This document shows, piece after piece, positions 1 through 64,000 of a DNA stretch of 64,000 nucleotides. Each line of letters starts with the position of its first letter. The first letter of the stretch is position 1. This DNA comes from a virus, in IMG/VR virus record IMGVR_UViG_3300020050_010026, positions 3,980 through 67,979 of that record. One strand, written 5' to 3'. A model generated the notes under the pieces. That model did no database searches. It worked only from the letters and a program-made list of their open reading frames with translations, and had not been told where the DNA came from. A program made the position numbers and the translations under genes.

Positions 1-2
1 GA

Positions 3-158
3 TTAGGTGATTTTACAAATATAACATCTGGTTCATCTACAGGTTATGGAACAAATACTCCTCAAATAGAATTATTAAAATTAATTATGGAAAAAGGTGG
101 TGAGCAAGGTAAAAAAATTGCAAGTTCTGCACTTAATAGAATACAAGCAAATAGATAA
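3..158 (+). CDS. C-terminal fragment of an upstream structural/virion gene (partial at window edge)
   Basis: Open frame running from the window edge to a TAA at 156-158 (…GGEQGKKIASSALNRIQANR*). Immediately followed by the ATG of the giant ORF at 161. Confidence 0.4.
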   Translation, partial: LGDFTNITSGSSTGYGTNTPQIELLKLIMEKGGEQGKKIASSALNRIQANR

Positions 159-3100: not shown

Positions 3101-6100
3101 TACGAAGATAAGACTTTAACAAAATCTGAAGAATTACAATTATCATTATGGTTAATAGATGCTTTTAAAAGAGTAACCAGATTGTATAATGAAAAAAATA
3201 CAAAAGAAGAAACCGAAACTTTAAATCAGGCTTATAGTAATTTAGAAATAATAGAATCTTTATTATATAATTTAAAAATAAATAAAAATGAAACAGTCCA
3301 AAAAGAAAGAAGTGATTCAAAAAATGAAATTACTATCTCTTCCGAAAAAACTAAAACAAAAACTTCAGAAGTAAATAATCAAGAACTTGAACAATTAAAA
3401 AAAGAAAAAGAAGATTTACTACAACAGATAAAAGAAGAAAGTCTTGTATTTAAGATGCCTGAAATAACTGAAGAAGAAAAAATAGATTCTGTACTACAAA
3501 CTAGCGAAGTTGCTGAAGTAGAAAAAGGAGTTCAAAATCTTATAAATGAAAGTTTAGATGATGAAGGTAATCCAACAATAAGCCAAGAAGAATTCAATGC
3601 TTATATGGAACAACAAGATATTCCAGAAGAAGTAAAAGATGCTGTTGTACTTTTAAATGAAGAACAACTTAATACATTACCTACACAAGAAGTAATAGAT
3701 AATAAAGTAGAACTTATTAAAACTGAACTTGAAGGTGTTGATGAAAAAGATATAACTGAAGACGATTCTATTCATAAAGAAGAAGATGAAGATGTAGCTA
3801 ATTCATTTACAAATAGTAAAGAAGTTATTGAACCTGAACCTGAAAATAATTCATTAGGTCATAAAATTCAGAATAAAATTACAGAAGCTTTAGAGAAAAT
3901 TTATAAAATATTTGAAAAAACTCCAAGAGATAAAAGAGATGATAAAGTTACTTTTAGTTTAGGTGATTTCATTAATAACGATACAGTTAAAGATATTTGG
4001 GATAATTTTTTAAAAACTGGTAAAATTGATAAATCAGGTATTAAATGGTTAGAAGAATATTTACCAATAAAAGTTACCTTAACTAACGGAAAAGTAGAAG
4101 GTTCATCATTTTTAAAATCTAAAAAAGGCTCTCCTAATTTTGAAAGTTATGAATTACCTTTAAGAAAAGCGATTGTAAAAGCTTTAATTGAAAATAAAGG
4201 TGATTTTACTAAATTTGAAGGTTCGGTCCAAGGGCAAGGTAAAGGTAAGTTAAATTTAGATAATGCGAGTACACAAAATAATGTATTAGATATTAGTGTA
4301 CTTAAAGGAATGAAAAAACCTGAATTATTAAAATATCTTAAAGAAAATACTTATATTGTAAATCACGATAAACAATTAGTTCATGCTGAAACAGGACAAA
4401 AATCTATAGAAAGTTTTTTTAATGTTATAAAATCTTTTCATAGTGGAGATGTATTTTTAGTATTTACTAGACCTAATGGACAGAAAGTTCCTATTAAATT
4501 AAATAATAAAAGAATTACTCAAGAAAAGGCTGAAGCAACTGTTAAATTATTAGCTTTACTTTCTAATACAATTAAAACAAATCAATCAGATATTGTTTTA
4601 AATGATAAAGATTTCAAAAACTTTTTAAAAGATAATGTTGGAGAATTTTACTATAATCAATTAGAATTTGAAATAAATTTTTCTAAAAAAAATAATAATA
4701 AAACAAGATTAGAAGAAATAATTAATTATATTACCTATATTCAAAATAATAATAATATTAGTAAATTATTTATAGACAATAATGGAGATTTAACAATAGG
4801 TAGATTAATTCAAAAAGTTAATGAAGATTTACAAGTTGAAAATAATGATTATGATAAAAACCTAACAGCGATTGGTTTTAGAGGTTTTGAAGGTCAAAAT
4901 ATAGAATCTTTAATTAGTAATGAATTAGATGAAAACGCACAAGCTAGATTTAATCATTTGGTTAGATTTATTATGTACAAAAAAACTAATATTATTGCTG
5001 ATAAATTTACTGATGATAATTATATAGAACATGTTTTTGGTATTGGTGAAAATAAACAAAGTCTAGTTAGCACTAATGTTTCAGTAGATAAAGATATATT
5101 TGGAGGTTATAGTGATATATTTCTTAACAATGAAGTTACTACTTTAGAAGATGGTAAAGCTAAAGCTAAAGAATTAAAAGAAATTGAAAACACTGAAATA
5201 CCTTTAGCTAAAGAAGTTGTTTATAATGAACCTACATCTACTACTCAATCTGAAATAGAAGTTCAAAAAGCTGATATACTACAAAAAAAGAAAGAAAGGT
5301 TAGCAAACGTTAAACCTATGTATCATCATACAAATGTTGATACTAAAGACTTTAACTTTAATAATTTTCAAAGAGGGAATAAACAAGTTAGTCAATTTGG
5401 TGATGGTTTAAACGCATCATCAAATACCACTTCATTTCTAGTTAGTAGATATGGTAAACCAATACAAGGTGAAGTCAATGATGCTGATTTTGTTAAAATA
5501 GATGCTTCAAAAACTGAAAAAGAAGTATATGAAGAATTAAAAAAACAAGGTTATATATTTTCTGAGGTTCATGATACTAATGATGTTTTATCTGAAGTAC
5601 CTGGAGCAGCTATGGAGTTATTTACAGATTTTCAAAAGTCTAATCCAAATGTAAAAGGTGTTCGAGTAAGTAATCATATTATAGGTAATACTAAAGTTGC
5701 ACCATTTTATGTAATATATGATGCTAAATCATTTTATGGTCAAGGAGCTTTAAGTAAAAAAATTGAACAAGAAAGTAATGCAGAATTAGCTGCTTTAGAA
5801 AGTAAACCTAAAATTAATTTAGAAGATAAAAAAGCTGATATAGAAAGAAGAAGACAAGAAGAATTAAATGAAGAAAGTTATAGAATACCTATAGCAAAAG
5901 AAAGCAAAACATTTGTTGATGAAAATGGTACTAATTTAAAAATAACCATAACAACTTTTAAAAACGGTTCAAAAGTTTCACAAACAACTAATTTGGATAA
6001 TGGAGTTGTAACACCTAAGGAGTCTTATCCAAAAGAATTAGATAATGCTAAAATATATAACGCTGAGTCAGGAACTGAAATTAAGTTAGATGATACTAGA

Positions 6101-57625: not shown

Positions 57626-57814
57626 ACTCCCTAATATTTAAACCATTGTTAATTTTGTACAATTAGTTTAAATGTCGACTTTTTTTTTTAATATTATCTT
57701 TGAATTTTCCAAAGACTTTCGTAAGATTTACCTTTTTTTCTAAAAATTAAAAACGATAATAAAGTTATTATGGGTATTACTATCATTGGAACAGTTTTAC
57801 AATACATCTTATTT

Positions 57815-58045
57815 TCATAATATTTTTTGATTTAAAAAGTTTATAATTTTTTTCTTTTGCATATGAATAAAAAAAGAAATAAACAATATGGAAGTAAGAC
57901 ATGTTAAAGCAAAGATTAAAGCTGCAAATATTTCAAAAGGTGTTGGATTTAATTTATTAAATAAATCAATATGTATAATTGTATATATGTTTAAATATAA
58001 TATATATATTAACATAAGTATTAATAATAAATGTTTTACTTTCAT
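57815..58045 (-). CDS. small membrane protein (two predicted TM helices; holin-like)
   Basis: MKVKHLLLILMLIYILYLNIYTIIHI… and …IFAALIFALTCLTSILFISFFI, followed by a basic tail. Confidence 0.35.
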   Translation of the reverse strand: MKVKHLLLILMLIYILYLNIYTIIHIDLFNKLNPTPFEIFAALIFALTCLTSILFISFFIHMQKKKIINFLNQKIL

Positions 58046-58377
58046 AATTTTAATTTTTTAAACTCAGAATATAAATAATCTACTGGATGAGATTCCCACC
58101 AACTTGATTGTAAAATAGAATTGAATTCGTAATCTAATTCATTATCATAATTTGGTAATTCTCCTAATTGTAACATTTTATCAGCTAAATGTGTCATACA
58201 AAATTCAAACCAATGAATTCTTGTAATATTTTTATTTTTAATAAAATATATATAACCGTCAGGTTCTAGATCATAATCATTCACACCTAAATATGTTTCA
58301 ATATATTCAGGAAATAATACTTTACACATTTCTAATAATTTAGATTTATGCTCTTCTGTTAATTCAATTGGTTTCAT
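58042..58377 (-). CDS. hypothetical protein
   Basis: ORF in a compact array. Confidence 0.35.
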   Translation of the reverse strand: MKPIELTEEHKSKLLEMCKVLFPEYIETYLGVNDYDLEPDGYIYFIKNKNITRIHWFEFCMTHLADKMLQLGELPNYDNELDYEFNSILQSSWWESHPVDYLYSEFKKLKL

Positions 58378-58646
58378 TTTGTTTGAAGTTTATCAAAATT
58401 AGATTTTAAATATTTTAAATTAGATTCTTTTTGTAATAATTCAATTTCTTGATTTTTGATTTGATTTTCTTTCATTTCAATTAAATTATTTTTTATTTCA
58501 TCTAAAATAATTAATTGTTGATGTGAATCCCAATTATCAAATATGTGTTGTGATAGTCTTTTAGCTTCCATTACAGCTAATTTACTAGTACCTGGTATAT
58601 AACATATAAATTTATATTTTATATATCTTTTAAAACGTTTAAACAT
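58374..58646 (-). CDS. hypothetical protein
   Basis: ORF in a compact array. Confidence 0.35.
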   Translation of the reverse strand: MFKRFKRYIKYKFICYIPGTSKLAVMEAKRLSQHIFDNWDSHQQLIILDEIKNNLIEMKENQIKNQEIELLQKESNLKYLKSNFDKLQTK

Positions 58647-59303: not shown

Positions 59304-59638
59304 GATTGTAAAGATTCTAAAATTTTCATACCAATATGTTGTGATTCAACATTTTTTACTTTGGTAACTTCACTCCATGATTTTGACGATTCATATCTAA
59401 AATCATTTAATACAAAATTCCAATATAGGTTCCATAGATAATTAAAATAAGGTTTTGTTAAATAACCTAATTTGTTATACTTGTTTTTACATCTACTAAA
59501 TTCATCTTGTTGTACAAGACGTAAATGTTTGAATATTTCTTGTGATTCAATAGCTTTAATCATTGACATCACTTTAACTCCTTTATATCCAGCTTTTTCA
59601 AGCTCTGTTTTAGATATAAATTTTCTTTTTTTTTCCAT
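59300..59638 (-). CDS. hypothetical protein
   Basis: ORF in a compact array. Confidence 0.35.
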   Translation of the reverse strand: MEKKRKFISKTELEKAGYKGVKVMSMIKAIESQEIFKHLRLVQQDEFSRCKNKYNKLGYLTKPYFNYLWNLYWNFVLNDFRYESSKSWSEVTKVKNVESQHIGMKILESLQS

Positions 59639-59664
59639 AATGTTGTTAATTTTAATTAGTTAGT

Positions 59665-59913
59665 TTACCATTCTGTATTTGGATCATTACATGGTCTACC
59701 ATTAATGAATAATTCTGTACTAATAGAAGTATTTTTTATTAAAATACTATCAATTGATTGTGGTATATCAGATGTTTCTTCTAAATCATCTTCTGTAATA
59801 GTTCTTGTTGCTTTTTTAATTAATTTATCTTCAGCATATTTTAATCCGTAATAACACGTTTTCAAAATATCAAGTTTTTGTTTTGATAATTTTGTTAAAT
59901 CTAAATTTTTCAT
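59665..59913 (-). CDS. hypothetical protein
   Basis: ORF in a compact array. Confidence 0.3.
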   Translation of the reverse strand: MKNLDLTKLSKQKLDILKTCYYGLKYAEDKLIKKATRTITEDDLEETSDIPQSIDSILIKNTSISTELFINGRPCNDPNTEW

Positions 59914-60577
59914 AATGTTGTTAGTTTTAGTTTGTTATTGATATAATAAAAGAAATAGGTATTGTTTTTTCAAACTTTTTATCATCAAAAATAACATTTA
60001 CAGTATTAGTTTTATTGCAAAATGATATTTTATCTATTTTTGATATTATACCAGAATTATTCCATTCATCTTTATATTTTAATATCATAATTAGTTAAGT
60101 TTTAAACAGTTATTTAAATCAATAGTATTCCAAATATGTACATAAGTAAATTCACCATTTGGAAACCATAGTCTAAGATATTGAGGATTGCTCATAATTA
60201 AAATATTAAAAATAATGTTTCAATTATTACAATACAAATTAAAAATCTAATAGACATGTTAGCATTTTGTAATTGTATTTCTAATGGTAATTTTTTGTAT
60301 TCTGAATTTTTCATAATAGTTAATTGTTAGTTAATAATTTTTTAATGTTCAATAATAAAAAATAAGGGTCTAGATGTAAAAGACGGATTCAATATCTCTA
60401 ACATTTACGAAGACCCTTATTTTCGTTCTATTTAAGTGAGTGGCGTACTGCTCACAAATTTCTATTATATCATATAGACGGAGTGACTACGGGTTAATTT
60501 GTAAACAAATCGTTCCGACTGATGACCGTAACTGATAATATAATTTCATTCTCTGCCATTTTAGAGATTAAATATAG

Positions 60578-60650
60578 GGTGATAGGTGAGGGTCGAACTC
60601 ACATTTTTCTGAACCACAATCAGAGGCTTTACCCTTAAGCTACAATCACC
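60578..60650 (-). tRNA. tRNA-His (anticodon GTG) with 5' G-1
   Basis: Minus strand: g-GTGATTG-TA-GCTT-AAGGGTA-AAGC-C-TCTGA-TTGTGGT-TCAGA-AAAAT-GTGAG-TTCGACC-CTCAC-CTATCAC-C. All four stems pair. Anticodon loop is U-U-GUG-G-U. Extra 5' G opposite the C73 discriminator (His identity). Confidence 0.8.
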
Positions 60651-60680
60651 ATGTAAAAATATAAAAGAATTATATTTTTG

Positions 60681-60752
60681 TATTTCCAGAGAGAATTGAA
60701 CTCTCGTTTTTAGGTTGAAAACCTAATGTCCTAACCACTAGACGATGGGAAC
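60681..60752 (-). tRNA. tRNA-Glu (anticodon TTC)
   Basis: Minus strand: GTTCCCA-TC-GTCT-AGTGGTTAGG-ACAT-TTAGG-TTTTCAA-CCTAA-AAAC-GAGAG-TTCAATT-CTCTC-TGGAAAT-A. Resembles the bacterial tRNA-Glu D-arm (TCGTCTAGTGGTTAGGAC). One acceptor mismatch. Confidence 0.7.
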
Positions 60753-60811
60753 GGTTTCTGTATGCTTTACGTAAAGCTATGGTAGTACAGACACTATTAT
60801 TCCATTATTCT

Positions 60812-60938
60812 GTGGAGGTGCCGGCATCGAAACCGGGTCCATAAACAATTTCAATACAATAATATATTACAGCTTAGTTATAGATTTACGTGTTTAACTA
60901 CACATAGGTCAACTGATTAATCAGAATGACTCCACCAC
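60812..60938 (-). other. tRNA-like / hairpin-rich element (about 125 nt) of uncertain nature
   Basis: 3' part CCGG-TTTCGAT-GCCGG-CACCTCC-A resembles a T-arm plus acceptor. The 5' part GGAGTC…CTGATTAATCAG… forms a long imperfect palindrome. No canonical cloverleaf found. Confidence 0.25.
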
Positions 60939-61956
60939 TTCATTTAATCTAATGAAGAAATCTTAAAACAACTTAAAATTAAGCAGCAATTAATTCTTGT
61001 TTCCAAGAAAAATCACCACATATCACATCATTATTTAAAATGTTGTGAACTACTTCCATATTTGCTCTAACTTGAGCGTTTGTATTCTTGTCATTTATTA
61101 ATTCACCTTAGTTTACAGTTATCTCTCTGGCTGATTATTATATTTACTACTATCTATGTCAAATCCTGTCACCCCCTTAAAATAATCTCATTTTGATAGA
61201 ATGTGATTAGTATAACTATTTTCAATATCTTTATATAAATGATGTCACGAGAAACGTGCTTCTCTTACCCTATAGCGTACTAGGAGCATTTATAAAGGTA
61301 TTAAATGTTTAACCTATTTGAGAGTTTTATCATTGCAACTCACAAGTGTTTTCTTTTCTTCAGAAACCAATAGCACCCATTTAACATTGGGTACACCATG
61401 TTTTTATAAAATCACTTGTCCAAATTCTAGTGGAATGGTTACTATGTTGACGTACTTACAACACATGAACATCTTTACAATAAACACAACTGCTAGTACA
61501 GTTTATAATTTGGTGTGCGTACCTAATTCTCCACCTTCATTATTATTTATCTTCAAGCAAGTGATTATATTAAAAACATTGAAAAATACTAGGATTACTC
61601 CTTGGGTTTGCAATGGGTCGAACCCATACTACACACCTCAATCTTCTGTCAATTCAGAAGTAGTATCTTTTTATAAATTATACACCCTATGCGTGCATCA
61701 CATCTTTTTAGCACTTAATGTAGGTAAAATCTTATTATACATTATTCTTATGATTTATAAAATTCAATGTTTAACTTTTAATTTAATTTTGTTTATTACA
61801 ATCTTTACAATTTAAAAATTCTTTTTCATTTCCATGAATGATTTTATTAGTATTACAAAACCATTTCTTTTCATACGGAATAAATATTTCTTTAAAATCT
61901 TTATATTTATACAAACATACAAAAAACAATATCACGCAACTAAAAGGAACAAAACA

Positions 61957-62229
61957 ATGTTAAAAGCAACTGTAAAAACAAACAAAACTGAAACAATTAA
62001 AGGCACTGCAAAATCTGGAAAAGAATATTCCTTGATTGTTCAAAATGAAATTTATGTCACAAATGGGGAGGAACGGTTTCAATTGCCTATTACCCTTGAC
62101 GATAATCAGTCGCCGTATGAGCCTGGCGAATATCAATTTAGTGTTGAAGAAATGATACAAAAAGGTCGTTTCGGCCTAGAGGTAAAGCCATTTTTTCAGC
62201 CAAAATTAATAAAAATTCTAAAGCTTTAA
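61957..62229 (+). CDS. Filamentous-phage gene V-like ssDNA-binding protein (g5p)
   Basis: MLKATVKTNKTETIKGTAKSGKEYSLIVQNEIYVTNGEERFQLPITLDDNQSPYEPGEYQFSVEEMIQKGRFGLEVK aligns along its length with M13 gVp (…RQGKPYSLNEQLCYVDLGNEYPVLVKITLDEGQPAYAPGLYTVHLSSFKVGQFGSL…). AGGAA RBS 8 nt upstream. Confidence 0.7.
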   Translation: MLKATVKTNKTETIKGTAKSGKEYSLIVQNEIYVTNGEERFQLPITLDDNQSPYEPGEYQFSVEEMIQKGRFGLEVKPFFQPKLIKILKL

Positions 62230-62336
62230 CTTTGGAATGTATGAATTCCGAACTTCCGGAATACAAGCTTTTCTCGATTATTGCTTGAACAAAAAAAATC
62301 GAATTTCACTTAACTTTTAATTTTATAGGCAATCAA

Positions 62337-62534
62337 ATGAAAAACTTTTTAAAAAATGGTGGTTTAGTCCTTGTCGGTTCAACTGTAGCAATTCCTGCTT
62401 TTGCCGCTGTTCCTGCTTCTGTTACCACTGCACTTGGTGATATGAGCACTGACTCCATTACTATTGCGTCTTTGTCTTTTGTTGTTTTTATTGGTATTTT
62501 GGCTTTTACTTATTATCGTAGAGCTGCCAAGTAA
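62337..62534 (+). CDS. Inovirus major coat protein (g8p-like)
   Basis: 65 aa: signal peptide (…AIPAFA|A), short acidic segment, hydrophobic helix (IASLSFVVFIGILAF), basic C-terminus (YYRRAAK). Followed by a strong terminator, as for M13 gene VIII. Confidence 0.6.
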   Translation: MKNFLKNGGLVLVGSTVAIPAFAAVPASVTTALGDMSTDSITIASLSFVVFIGILAFTYYRRAAK

Positions 62535-62535
62535 A

Positions 62536-62568
62536 TACTAAGGGGGTGCAAGCCCCCTTTTTTTTTTC
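62536..62568 (+). terminator. Rho-independent terminator after the coat gene
   Basis: aagggggtgcaagccccctt hairpin followed by a T10 run. Confidence 0.8.
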
Positions 62569-62596
62569 TTATCAAAAAAAATTAAAGGTGATAAGC

Positions 62597-62962
62597 ATGG
62601 CTTGGTCATATAACGGATATTGCTACCCAACTCTTGAAAACATAGGTGACATTGTTAAATCAACTGACACTTATGTTTTATCTAATGGCTGGTCTTTTCC
62701 TTCTTCCTATACAGTGCAAGCTGGTACTGGTACGATCACTTATACTCTTTTGTATAAAGCTGGTGGTGCGACTACTGTTATGGGTTCTGTTCCTGGTGGT
62801 TCTTTTTCCCGTAATTATTCACCATGCACAAATGTTGGTTATTTAACGAATTATTCAGGTCTCGAGCTTACGGATGCTGTTTCAGTTTCTTGGATGGTTG
62901 TTCTTGTATGGGTTACTGCTTACACTTTTAAAATGTGGCGACAAGCTGCAAGAGGTTATTAA
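62597..62962 (+). CDS. hypothetical virion/minor coat protein candidate (122 aa)
   Basis: ATG at 62597 with AAAGGTG RBS. Ends with a hydrophobic helix (WMVVLVWVTAYTF). The ORF-track entry 62546-62962 is the same frame with an upstream extension. Confidence 0.4.
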   Translation: MAWSYNGYCYPTLENIGDIVKSTDTYVLSNGWSFPSSYTVQAGTGTITYTLLYKAGGATTVMGSVPGGSFSRNYSPCTNVGYLTNYSGLELTDAVSVSWMVVLVWVTAYTFKMWRQAARGY

Positions 62963-63036
62963 TGACTCCTGATTTTTATTTAATAGCTGTTTACATGGCA
63001 ATAACAGGTGCGGCATGGATTATATTCAACGGATAA
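62962..63036 (+). CDS. small hydrophobic virion protein (24 aa; g7p/g9p-like)
   Basis: MTPDFYLIAVYMAITGAAWIIFNG. ATG overlaps the upstream stop (TAATG). Overlaps the start of the g3p-like gene, as gVII/gIX do in Ff phages. Confidence 0.3.
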   Translation: MTPDFYLIAVYMAITGAAWIIFNG

Positions 63037-64000
63037 TACTTTTATTATTAATAACACCGGTTTCTTATGCCGCTGTTATGGATACATCTGGAAAATGGGT
63101 TGTTAAGCCTATTGGCGGAACTATGACAGTTAACCCAAGGGATATAAAAATCATTCCAACAATGGAATCAATGATTAATGATGCCTTCAGGAATTACAAT
63201 CCTGTTTCTCAAACGGCTCCGACATACCAAGCTTATAACGCCGGTGCGCAACCGGCTGCATCTGCTTCATCAAGAATGCATATACCTGTATCTGGCAAAT
63301 CAATTCCTGTTGATGTAAAGGGAATATTCAACAAAAGTAACATGGCGGCTGCCGCTCGTTTTGGTATGCGTGCATTACCTTATGCTTTTGCTGCTGGAGC
63401 AATATATGATTGGTTCACAAACTCTGGTTTTTCCGGTTCTGGTGATTCCATTAATAAAACCACTCCAGTTTATTCAAACTGTGAATATGCCGGTGCATAT
63501 ACTTCTTATGAAAGTTGTTTACAAACAATTGGCACAACTATAGGTTATTGTGAAAAGCCAACACCCGACTATTATGCTTGGTTTAGATACCAATGCGGCT
63601 CGGTAACTCAGTCATCAATTCCTGCAACTGATACCGATATTGAGCAAGGTTTGAATAATACTTCTTATGATCCTGTAGCCTCTATCCAGGATCTGACAAG
63701 TAAAGGTGTTATTCCTCAACCATCAGACCACCAGTTCACTTACCCACAATCAACCTCAGTTGGTGGGTCAACATCAACATTACCTGATGGTACTGTTCAA
63801 AATCAGGACACAACAATTAAGATTTCTGAAACTCCAACAACGGTAAATGGTACACCAACAAAAGAACTAACTATTATCAAAGAAACTGTAACTACAATAA
63901 CTAACACTAACAATACAACATCAACTACAACAACTGTAACTGCGCCTGATGTCCAACAGGATACGCAAGAACAGAAAACAGATTGTGACAAATACCCTCA
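63015..64000 (+). CDS. Inovirus adsorption/minor coat protein (g3p-like), 5' partial; continues beyond the window
   Basis: Open frame from ATG 63015 to the window end. Signal peptide MDYIQRIILLLLITPVSYA|A. Cys-containing N-domain. Thr/Asn-rich low-complexity linker (TTITNTNNTTSTTTTVTAPD). Confidence 0.5.
   Translation, partial: MDYIQRIILLLLITPVSYAAVMDTSGKWVVKPIGGTMTVNPRDIKIIPTMESMINDAFRNYNPVSQTAPTYQAYNAGAQPAASASSRMHIPVSGKSIPVDVKGIFNKSNMAAAARFGMRALPYAFAAGAIYDWFTNSGFSGSGDSINKTTPVYSNCEYAGAYTSYESCLQTIGTTIGYCEKPTPDYYAWFRYQCGSVTQSSIPATDTDIEQGLNNTSYDPVASIQDLTSKGVIPQPSDHQFTYPQSTSVGGSTSTLPDGTVQNQDTTIKISETPTTVNGTPTKELTIIKETVTTITNTNNTTSTTTTVTAPDVQQDTQEQKTDCDKYP

Follow-up and report, generated by a model that had tools for sequence, protein, structure and literature searches.

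The right end of the window (the whole 64,000-nt stretch of DNA that was analysed, taken from a 67,979-bp source contig) raises the question of why genes of a filamentous phage directly follow a long run of crAss-like phage sequence, and whether the two are joined in a virus or only in an assembly. The join is probably that of a chimeric contig, produced as an assembly or library artefact, rather than the product of biological integration.

The left 61.9 kb of the window is a marine Crassvirales genome of ~24% GC. The best matches of its DNA polymerase are Crassvirales genomes at ~30% identity, a primase, a helicase and a ribonucleotide reductase have family matches, and a block of giant ORFs contains three of 2,199-2,603 aa. 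Among cultured phages, DNA similarity to this part is confined to Cellulophaga phage phi14:2, in its tmRNA region.

The final 2.1 kb consists of genuine inovirus genes. Two complete inoviruses serve as references for this segment: L017, an uncultured inovirus assembled from Logan SRR22388110 (6,451 bp, a metagenomic circle candidate), and L044, the Methylomonas rivi WSC-6 contig NZ_JANIBK010000166.1 (7,396 bp). The following features were assigned on this side of the join:

61912..61956, + strand: inovirus-side leader of 45 nt, with the gene V ribosome-binding site AAAGGAA inside
61957..62229, + strand: gene V-type ssDNA-binding protein, 90 aa (PF02303, 30.5 bits, cutoff 25; phrog_1199, E=1.9e-8)
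62337..62534, + strand: major coat protein, g8p-type, 65 aa (PF05356, 33.8 bits, cutoff 23.5; phrog_7106, E=2e-14)
62540..62569, + strand: intrinsic-terminator-like GC hairpin AAGGGGGTGCAAGCCCCCTT plus T10, 3' of the coat gene (from the sequence)
62597..62962, + strand: ORF121, lineage-specific, with a C-terminal membrane helix (homologues in L017 and L044)
62962..63036, + strand: hydrophobic ORF of 24 aa overlapping the g3p start (region conserved with L017 at the translated level)
63015..64000, + strand: g3p-like adsorption protein, truncated by the window end after its first 328 aa (architecture and gene position)

The initial annotation had described an abrupt inovirus structural module after a crAss-like genome, foreign to such a phage, and Pfam and PHROG matches, synteny and a step in GC content bear this out. 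Its gene V-like protein is confirmed by the family matches listed above, by PDB chains of the f1/M13 gene V protein matched at E about 1e-4, and by an alignment of 78 aa to M13 gVp with 36% identity. The g8p-like coat protein named there likewise stands, being small, with a signal sequence and a basic C-terminus as in Coat B proteins, and the g8p region is 51% identical to that of L017. The GC hairpin with its T10 terminator and the small hydrophobic ORFs of that description are also present, the larger of the ORFs (ORF121) sharing 44% identity with L017 P0002 and 34% with its homologue in L044; in both of these genomes the homologue is placed between g8p and g3p. The g3p-like protein proposed there retains a signal-peptide-like N-terminus and a Thr/Asn-rich linker, and BLASTP against the L044 homologue gives only E=0.06. 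Its identity is drawn from a gene position shared with L017 and L044, from this architecture, and from the motif TDCDKYP that ends the linker as in L044, where the 456-aa protein has 86 more residues (~260 nt) beyond it. Scans of IMG/VR and JGI metagenomes with the g3p-like protein gave no match, and an inovirus-only contig of 1,354 bp from another sample is 99.8% identical over 62054-63407.

No Rep homologue was found in the window, just 45 nt of non-crAss sequence preceding gene V, and the absence of Rep upstream of gene V marks the module as an inovirus fragment. The leader carries one open frame (ending in KHTKNNITQLKGTKQC and a stop codon 2 nt past the gene V ATG), which may represent the last codons of the Rep gene that is missing here. 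The region 61177-61956 has no homology to that upstream of gene V in L017. A Zot homologue, encoded downstream of g3p and g6p in L017 and L044, was found nowhere in the window, nor were other inovirus genes elsewhere in it.

The position of the join was set by alignment to L045, a contig of the same strain from a different JGI sample (3300020037) and without inovirus sequence. Identity between the two is 99.8% over 59402-61911 and divergence is total past 61911, where L045 runs colinearly into an intact 143-aa crAss gene, as in relatives, and the window passes into inovirus sequence. The switch thus falls exactly at 61911/61912 (...TCTTTATATTTATA / CAAACATACAAAAAAC...), 45 nt 5' of the gene V ATG and ~0.9 kb further right than the junction that the initial annotation had set near 61.0 kb. 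The GC profile that was to be checked across the junction has a sharp step here, from 24.2% in the crAss part to 37.4% in the inovirus part, and nucleotide similarity to the related contig L020 stops at 61884. The supposed spacer of 0.8 kb of non-coding sequence to the left of the module is in fact occupied, and 60.4-61.9 kb as a whole is the crAss-like phage's own sequence, with these features:

60577..60649, - strand: tRNA-His(GTG) of the crAss-like phage (ARAGORN; Rfam tRNA, 58.1 bits; flanks conserved in relatives)
60680..60752, - strand: tRNA-Glu(TTC) of the crAss-like phage (ARAGORN; Rfam, 64.1 bits)
60810..61176, - strand: phage-encoded tmRNA (Rfam RF00023, 56.7 bits, cutoff 47; ARAGORN at a relaxed threshold)
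61408..61566, - strand: structured non-coding element B, conserved (relatives carry seven distinct versions, with an identical core)
61580..61679, - strand: conserved element A, the "tRNA-like fragment" of the initial annotation (alignment with L034, L036 and L008)
61783..61911, - strand: 3' remnant of a 143-aa crAss-like membrane/Zn-finger-like gene (translation matching the C-terminus of the intact L045 gene)

The join cuts the last of these at codon 101/102, leaving the last 42 codons and the stop in the window; the first 101 codons are missing. Homologues of the 143-aa gene lie 5' of the tmRNA in L020, L025-L027, L029 and L043, and the gene is intact beside the tmRNA in relatives such as L020, L029 and L043, the L020 copy having one in-frame TGA. 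General TGA recoding in the relatives was considered and rejected, as just one in-frame TGA is aligned with Trp. An ORF of 165 aa on the + strand (61318-61815), called as a gene on L045, is probably spurious because it reads antisense across the conserved RNA-like elements and into the 3' end of the 143-aa gene.

Among ~20 related crAss-like loci compared, none contains inovirus sequence. A junction-spanning pattern found no match in the JGI metagenome or IMG/VR collections, a gapped pattern in the JGI metagenomes included, and exact-protein look-ups recovered nothing beyond short contigs of other JGI samples (L001, L018, L019, L045 and L047). A near-identical contig of 85 kb (L024) stops ~7.7 kb before the junction.

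The RNA genes and elements beside the join make up a conserved small-RNA cluster of marine crAss-like phages, composed of a long-tag tmRNA and two unclassified structured elements, which is also found in the cultured phage phi14:2, where it is unannotated. The tmRNA has a G3:U70 acceptor pair and a predicted tag of AQVRANMEVVHNILNNDVICGDFSWKQELIAA followed by a stop, and homologous tmRNAs occupy the same locus in L020/21, L026, L027, L029, L031, L034, L042 and L043 as well as in phi14:2; a tRNA-Glu follows the tmRNA in L020, L026 and L029 also. Element B is closed by a helix (AAATCACTTG/CAAGTGATTT) with a U-run after it and contains conserved blocks inside, and RNAalifold recovered this helix with one GC to AU compensatory pair; the minus strand of 61395-61700 has a fold z-score of -3.5, and element B has no match to an Rfam family. 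Element A has a core of AATTTAnAnAAAGATACTA plus the hairpin YCTG-AATTGA-CAGR, which is conserved in L034, L036 and L008 with a U-A to C-G exchange. Its reading as a tRNA-like 3' fragment is upheld as far as the hairpins form, however neither ARAGORN at default settings nor the Rfam tRNA model calls it, and the T-arm-like GGGTTCGACCC is not conserved. As support for a tRNA or att site, default ARAGORN, the Rfam tRNA and tmRNA models and a permissive Rfam scan of 61150-61960 gave nothing credible; at a 70% threshold ARAGORN touches element A as a spurious "tmRNA", with only implausible intron-containing or permuted calls.

The initial annotation had left the choice between a chimera and an integration junction, with element A as a possible att site. 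Transfer RNA and tmRNA genes are a known integration route for prophages, the tRNA/tmRNA cluster lies less than 1.3 kb from the junction, and the hairpins at 61590-61665 are cloverleaf-like, all of which would suit an inovirus prophage integrated site-specifically at a tRNA- or tmRNA-type att site of the crAss-like phage, with that fragment as attL. The breakpoint, however, is inside coding sequence and not at a tRNA end; its distance is 735 bp to the 5' end of the tmRNA and roughly 250-320 bp to the tRNA-like hairpins. The fragment that tRNA models miss is unchanged in the inovirus-free L045, its core being conserved in other crAss-like phages without an inovirus. No direct repeat involving the junction and no att-like repeat was found within the 64-kb window, the distal inovirus end lying outside it, and the 2.1 kb of inovirus sequence in view has no apparent integrase. 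The inovirus was moreover entered between Rep and gene V: given the 45 nt before gene V and the position of Rep immediately upstream in L017 and L044 (about 245 nt and 22 nt, respectively, from Rep end to gene V), the join cuts the Rep-gene V unit and falls at no recognisable att or intergenic site. Site-specific integration is accordingly very improbable, and the att role proposed for element A is unsupported. Gene capture, in which a functional crAss-like phage would have domesticated the inovirus gV, g8p and g3p, is scarcely credible. The one point in its favour is that the ORFs are intact, with their own ribosome-binding sites and terminator, and against it stand the ~20 relatives that all lack these three genes, the unadapted composition of the segment, the 99.8% identical inovirus-only contig from another sample, and a filament coat protein without a conceivable role in a podovirus.

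Illegitimate, non-site-specific recombination in a doubly infected cell deserves more weight, though it too is unlikely. Part or all of an inovirus replicative form would have entered the crAss-like genome, replacing or splitting the 143-aa gene beside the small-RNA cluster, in a genotype dominant in the source sample. The contig was assembled through the join without a break, the gene V ribosome-binding site is left intact, and the inovirus GC of 37% would suit a flavobacterial host, as would the crAss-like phage, whose relative phi14:2 infects Cellulophaga. Marine Flavobacteriia, the class to which the phi14:2 host belongs, are compatible with such a GC, and co-infection, with real recombination as its result, may have taken place. 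The region upstream of the tmRNA is also mosaic among relatives, with a homing endonuclease in L020, and in L047, another JGI contig of the same strain, a different foreign segment enters at 61350, reads in the direction of the crAss genes and ends in a proper stop codon. With this second foreign junction about 560 bp away, the locus could be a true hot spot of gene flux. A biological join, whether a captured gV-g8p-g3p segment or a whole filamentous phage integrated in a lytic-type marine crAss-like genome, would have arisen in a flavobacterial cell infected by both phages, at a locus prone to recombination beside the tmRNA/small-RNA cluster, a reading that we consider rather doubtful. Against recombination, the join truncates both partners, a conserved gene of the phage and the Rep-gene V unit of the inovirus, it is known from one contig only, the same strain is found uninterrupted in L045, the inovirus segment has undergone no compositional amelioration, and the foreign part is apparently a short tail at the contig end. 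To our knowledge, hybrids between tailed phages and inoviruses are unreported, and a search of the literature found none.

A chimeric contig remains the favoured explanation, supported by the colinear L045 allele, the cut crAss gene and Rep-gene V unit, the lack of a junction repeat or further inovirus genes in the window, the GC step, the ~20 related loci free of inovirus sequence, and the inovirus-only contig from another sample. The source contig joins two unrelated replicons, a marine crAss-like phage of ~24% GC and an inovirus fragment of 37% GC, linked most likely by a technical event: a chimeric read or template switch in library preparation, or an assembler mis-join, which would fall in a very AT-rich and probably thinly covered stretch. 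The inovirus genes themselves are real genes of a new filamentous phage, and only their physical linkage to the crAss-like genome would be spurious. The gV, g8p and ORF121 proteins of the source contig are present in the protein collection searched and the g3p-like protein is absent, as are the cut genes of JGI contigs, which fits a g3p cut by the contig end and a foreign piece that forms a terminal tail of 2.1-2.4 kb. A 51-aa fragment at the left edge has no database match either, the same as the g3p fragment. The placement of the inovirus piece at the end of the 67,979-bp contig, drawn from this database absence, is moderately supported. Foreign ends on other JGI contigs of the strain also count for a chimera: the first 72 nt of L018 are Illumina adapter, and L047 changes at 61350 to unrelated sequence of higher GC, which has no DNA match and resembles the C-terminal part of a Caudoviricetes "exonuclease" at 56% identity, its origin being only weakly assigned. 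The requirement of a de Bruijn mis-join for a shared k-mer counts against a chimera, as do the intact gene V ribosome-binding site, the possible hot spot to which L047 points and the flavobacterial GC compatibility noted above.

If the join is an artefact, its value is one of curation, as the 67,979-bp contig should be split at 61911/61912 before it enters taxonomy, host prediction or gene-content statistics; unsplit, it would assign genes for inovirus coat and ssDNA-binding proteins to a Crassvirales genome. The 2.1-kb fragment also comes from a new inovirus lineage that has rarely been sampled, L017 and L044 being the only relatives found. If the join is real, it would be the first documented case of a tailed dsDNA phage physically joined to a filamentous ssDNA phage, and a remarkable instance of genes moving between two virus realms within a single host.

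Compared with known systems, the inovirus segment is nearest to L017 and L044, with which it shares the gene order of g8p, ORF121 homologue and g3p. In these two genomes Rep lies directly upstream of gene V, and g6p (DUF2523) and Zot follow further on, whereas in the window the module begins 45 nt ahead of gene V, fused to crAss DNA; their GC content is 47%, in contrast to the 37% of the segment. The Ff-type phages (M13/f1/fd, Inoviridae) resemble it in their OB-fold gene V protein, small g8p-type coat protein with a hairpin/T-run terminator, secreted g3p-like protein with a low-complexity linker, and genes all on one strand. Unlike them, the window has no g7/g9 between gene V and g8p and has the 121-aa membrane ORF and the 24-aa ORF between g8p and g3p; identity is low (36% for gene V), and no Rep, g6p or Zot/pI can be seen in the window. 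On the other side of the join, phi14:2 (Crassvirales, Steigviridae) and the related contigs (L020, L025-L043) share the crAss-type replication module, the giant ORFs and the early-region cluster of tmRNA, tRNA-Glu and conserved non-coding elements, however none of them carries inovirus sequence. Integrated inovirus prophages, found at tRNA genes or dif sites and for example of the XerCD-dependent CTXphi type or integrase-bearing, likewise place inovirus genes beside tRNA or tmRNA genes in a larger replicon. The window differs in that its junction is inside a protein-coding gene, with no att duplication, integrase or dif-like site seen, in that its inovirus is broken between Rep and gene V, and in that the "host" is a lytic-type phage genome. 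Chimeric metagenome and virome contigs share with the window an abrupt change in composition, a breakpoint that ignores gene boundaries, a foreign piece at the contig end, a colinear allele in another sample, and same-strain contigs with adapter or foreign tails. The foreign tail here differs in its length of over 2 kb, which exceeds a read pair, so that two real contigs must have been connected by one or more chimeric links.

The inovirus structural genes that the initial annotation had recognized at the right end of the window are borne out by Pfam, PHROG and PDB matches and by the following layout of open reading frames (ORFs).

61957-62229, plus strand: gene V-type ssDNA-binding protein, 90 aa (PF02303, 30.5 bits, cutoff 25; phrog_1199)
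62337-62534, plus strand: g8p-type coat protein, 65 aa (PF05356, 33.8 bits)
62540-62569, plus strand: GC hairpin followed by T10, read from the sequence
62597-62962, plus strand: ORF121, 121 aa, with a membrane helix at the C-terminus
62962-63036, plus strand: hydrophobic ORF, 24 aa
from 63015, plus strand, open at the window end: g3p-like ORF

A PDB search with the gene V-type protein matched chains of the f1/M13 gene V protein, and its identity to M13 gVp is 36%, calculated against an approximate M13 reference sequence. By two Pfam hallmarks, these genes are those of an inovirus structural module. The module is a fragment, as Rep was looked for and is absent; no homologues of Rep, g6p or Zot were found within the whole 64-kb window. 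The 107-nt spacer between the gene V-type and coat protein genes contains a perfect 6-bp hairpin (ATTCCG-AACTTC-CGGAAT, 62245-62262, plus strand), a candidate attenuator that could also be an RNA-processing or packaging-related signal.

The abrupt switch described in the initial annotation is also visible in the GC profile on both sides, which stays at ~24% on the left until roughly 60.3 kb, whereas the final 2 kb on the right have 36-39%. In the left part, three plus-strand ORFs of 2,199-2,603 aa precede a long replication module on the minus strand, with PHROG matches to a DNA polymerase, primase, helicase, ribonucleotide reductase and an exonuclease. The top matches of the DNA polymerase are Crassvirales genomes at ~30% identity, and the left-hand genome, that of a distant crAss-like phage, belongs to Crassvirales. 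Among cultured phages, Cellulophaga phage phi14:2 alone matches this genome at the DNA level, over ~110 nt within the tmRNA. At the left edge of the window, an ORF at 1-158 (plus strand, open at the edge) ends in …NRIQANR and a stop; it has zero relatives in the protein database and probably represents the last part of another giant ORF, the fourth, itself cut at the contig start.

To the right of the replication module, the minus strand carries tRNA-His, tRNA-Glu and a tmRNA at 60810-61176. The 0.8 kb that had been read as non-coding is crAss-phage DNA, holding the tmRNA, two conserved minus-strand elements (A and B) and the 3′ part of a 143-aa gene.

60810-61176, minus strand: tmRNA (Rfam 56.7 bits, cutoff 47; acceptor pair G3:U70)
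61408-61566, minus strand: element B, three near-invariant blocks with variable hairpins between them, a 10-bp closing helix, then a U-run
~61580-61679, minus strand: element A
61783-61911, minus strand: remnant of the 143-aa gene, last 42 codons and stop, by comparison with the same-strain contig L045

The tmRNA tag predicted by relaxed ARAGORN, AQVRANMEVVHNILNNDVICGDFSWKQELIAA, is unusually long (~32 aa) and ends in ELIAA. In the uncultured crAss-like relatives L020 (6740-7118)/L021, L026, L027, L029, L031, L034, L042 and L043, a tmRNA homologue likewise precedes the replication module; the predicted tags of these homologues differ, several having ANMQVVHNILN…ELAA in common. In phi14:2 (KC821624) a tmRNA without annotation (46 bits, E=6e-16) is found at about 4031-4502 of the record, overlaid by the small 'hypothetical protein' CDSs gp012-gp014. 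The tmRNA locus is shared by many marine crAss-like phages.

Neither element A nor element B matches any Rfam family. Element B was found in seven distinct versions, including those on the related contigs L038 (8329-8523), L041 (8514-8711), L036 (12382-12575), L037 (1479-1698) and L002 (4265-4526), its core also being present in phi14:2, and is a candidate new structured RNA. Element A, a second conserved small-RNA-like element that also occurs in L034 (9132-9256) and L036 (13263-13311), combines an invariant AAAGATACTA box with the hairpin YCTG-AATTGA-CAGR, which shows one compensatory exchange. This hairpin is the 'anticodon arm' of the tRNA-like fragment proposed in the initial annotation, and as a hairpin it holds, being conserved in L034, L036 and L008 (U-A to C-G); the proposed 'T-arm', GGGTTCGACCC, is not conserved. 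Folding of 61395-61700 gives z=-3.5 for the minus strand versus z=-2.0 for the plus strand. Abundant early non-coding RNAs whose function is unknown have been described from intergenic regions of phi14:2, namely g004-g005 and g005-g006 (Drobysheva et al., bioRxiv 10.1101/2020.03.07.982082); these regions differ in position from the tmRNA and the element B core located here in phi14:2. The conserved crAss-phage tmRNA and the two unclassified RNA elements may merit separate follow-up.

Within 3548-4391 of L020, a GIY-YIG homing-endonuclease ORF (3713-4372) directly follows element B, and the 3′ block of the element (…CACTAGAATTTGGACAAGTGATTTTT) is repeated at the end of this ORF. Because the ORF adjoins element B and a second copy of the 3′ block is present, the arrangement suggests that the homing endonuclease targets the element B RNA gene. 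Antisense to both elements, a frame that begins with TTG stays open for 165 aa (61318-61815, plus strand); it extends over the 3′ part of the 143-aa gene and is called as a gene on L045. A stop-free frame of 498 nt is unusual for DNA of about 30% GC; the frame is probably spurious.

Nucleotide homology between the window and L020 reaches 61884, and at the protein level it goes further, into a short Zn-finger-like C-terminal peptide on the minus strand. L045 (2,880 bp), from a different JGI sample (3300020037), is 99.8% identical to 59402-61911, with 5 mismatches over 2,510 nt, and has no sequence in common with the window past 61911. Across the breakpoint it reads ...TTTATATTTATA on the shared side and ATATCCTGGATTCC... 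beyond, running on into the 143-aa gene, which is intact in L045 and encodes a membrane helix at the N-terminus and a CxxC-type motif at the C-terminus; homologues of this gene lie 5′ of the tmRNA in L020, L025-L027, L029 and L043. The junction had been sought within the 61.0-61.9 kb stretch; because the identity with L045 ends at 61911 and L045 continues into the intact gene, the breakpoint lies between 61911 and 61912, within conserved crAss coding sequence and 45 nt ahead of the gene V ATG. For the inovirus, this position is where Rep should end. Codon 96 of the 143-aa gene, TGG (Trp) in L045, is replaced by an in-frame TGA in L020 (6513-6515) and L021, where the frame nevertheless continues into the conserved Zn-finger-like C-terminus. 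No further TGA-for-Trp cases turned up when other shared genes were scanned; recoding was therefore rejected and the TGA regarded as isolated read-through, a pseudogene or an error.

A single 67,979-bp JGI contig lists the gene V, g8p and ORF121 proteins together with the crAss-side DNA polymerase, the 2,199-aa protein and several small proteins, and the window therefore faithfully copies the deposited contig. The protein collection lacks the g3p-like protein, though it includes the three upstream neighbours; genes that a JGI contig cuts short are missing from this collection, as judged from the partial genes of L001 (1,354 bp, sample 3300020049), which carries inovirus sequence alone, 99.8% identical to 62054-63407, and stops short of the junction. 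The simplest reading is that the g3p-like gene is cut by the contig end, and the foreign segment would therefore be a terminal tail of 2.1-2.4 kb, the remaining 3.7-4 kb of the contig lying left of the window. IMG/VR and JGI metagenome searches found no other contigs with a crAss/inovirus join. Two further same-strain JGI contigs have foreign ends. L018 (JGI 3300005664, Ga0073685_1074569) is 100% identical to 57681-58530, and its positions 1-72 are an untrimmed Illumina TruSeq index adapter, CAAGCAGAAGACGGCATACGAGAT-GCCTAA-GTGACTGGAGTTCAGACGTGTGCTCTTCCGATCT, a technical artefact at the contig end. L047 (sample 3300020046) is 99.65% identical to 59632-61350 and unrelated beyond 61350; its positions 1-197 (197 nt, 35% GC) hold the end of a gene whose product is 56% identical (E=5e-5) to the C-terminal part of a Caudoviricetes 'exonuclease'. 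The switch in L047, some 560 bp away from the inovirus junction, marks either another chimera or a real mosaic boundary.

Site-specific integration, for which the initial annotation had offered the tRNA-like fragment as an att site, is contradicted by the position of the breakpoint, which does not coincide with the end of a tRNA or tmRNA, and by the hairpins themselves, which belong to the ordinary, conserved sequence of the crAss phage and also occur in the allele that lacks the inovirus. There are no att-like repeats in the window, and the inovirus was opened between Rep and gene V rather than at an intergenic attachment region. Within the window, the linkage lacks every feature of prophage integration for which it was tested, and at the sequence level it has those of a mis-joined contig.

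A technical chimera is the likely explanation of the join. The breaks in both partners ignore gene structure, the composition is wholly unameliorated, an uninterrupted same-strain allele exists, and the join is unique to one contig, in which the foreign segment is seemingly terminal; L018 and L047 likewise have non-biological or unrelated ends. The breakpoint also falls within a stretch of 18-21% GC, and Illumina coverage tends to fall in very low GC stretches. However, the gene V ribosome-binding site is neatly intact, a flavobacterial host could be common to the 37% GC inovirus and this phage, and L047 could equally mark the small-RNA-cluster flank as a true hot spot for foreign DNA. Because of these points, a genuine recombinant formed by rare illegitimate recombination is retained as an unlikely alternative. 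With a technical chimera preferred, the junction most probably does not represent a genuine biological feature.

In its own right, the inovirus fragment is a new representative of the inoviruses, with no DNA match in the GenBank phage collection. A set of 5.8 billion proteins contains, besides ORF121 itself, only one relative (44% identity), on the 6,451-bp Logan contig SRR22388110 (L017), and a GTDB genome scan added one further relative, 34% identical, which Methylomonas rivi WSC-6 encodes on the 7,396-bp contig NZ_JANIBK010000166.1 (L044); both contigs are complete related inoviruses. Similarity of the window's gene V to the ORFs in the gene V position of L017 and L044 is undetectable. The window's g3p-like protein stops at the motif TDCDKYP, beyond which the L044 protein has 86 more residues, and therefore only ~260 nt of the g3p-like gene lie outside the window. 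The gene order of L017 is canonical, with regulators, Rep, a ~100-aa ORF in the gene V position, g8p, the ORF121 homologue, g3p, g6p (DUF2523) and Zot; L044 follows this order, apart from an additional 181-aa ORF between g8p and the ORF121 homologue, and the gap from the end of Rep to gene V is 22 nt in L044, in contrast to about 245 nt in L017.
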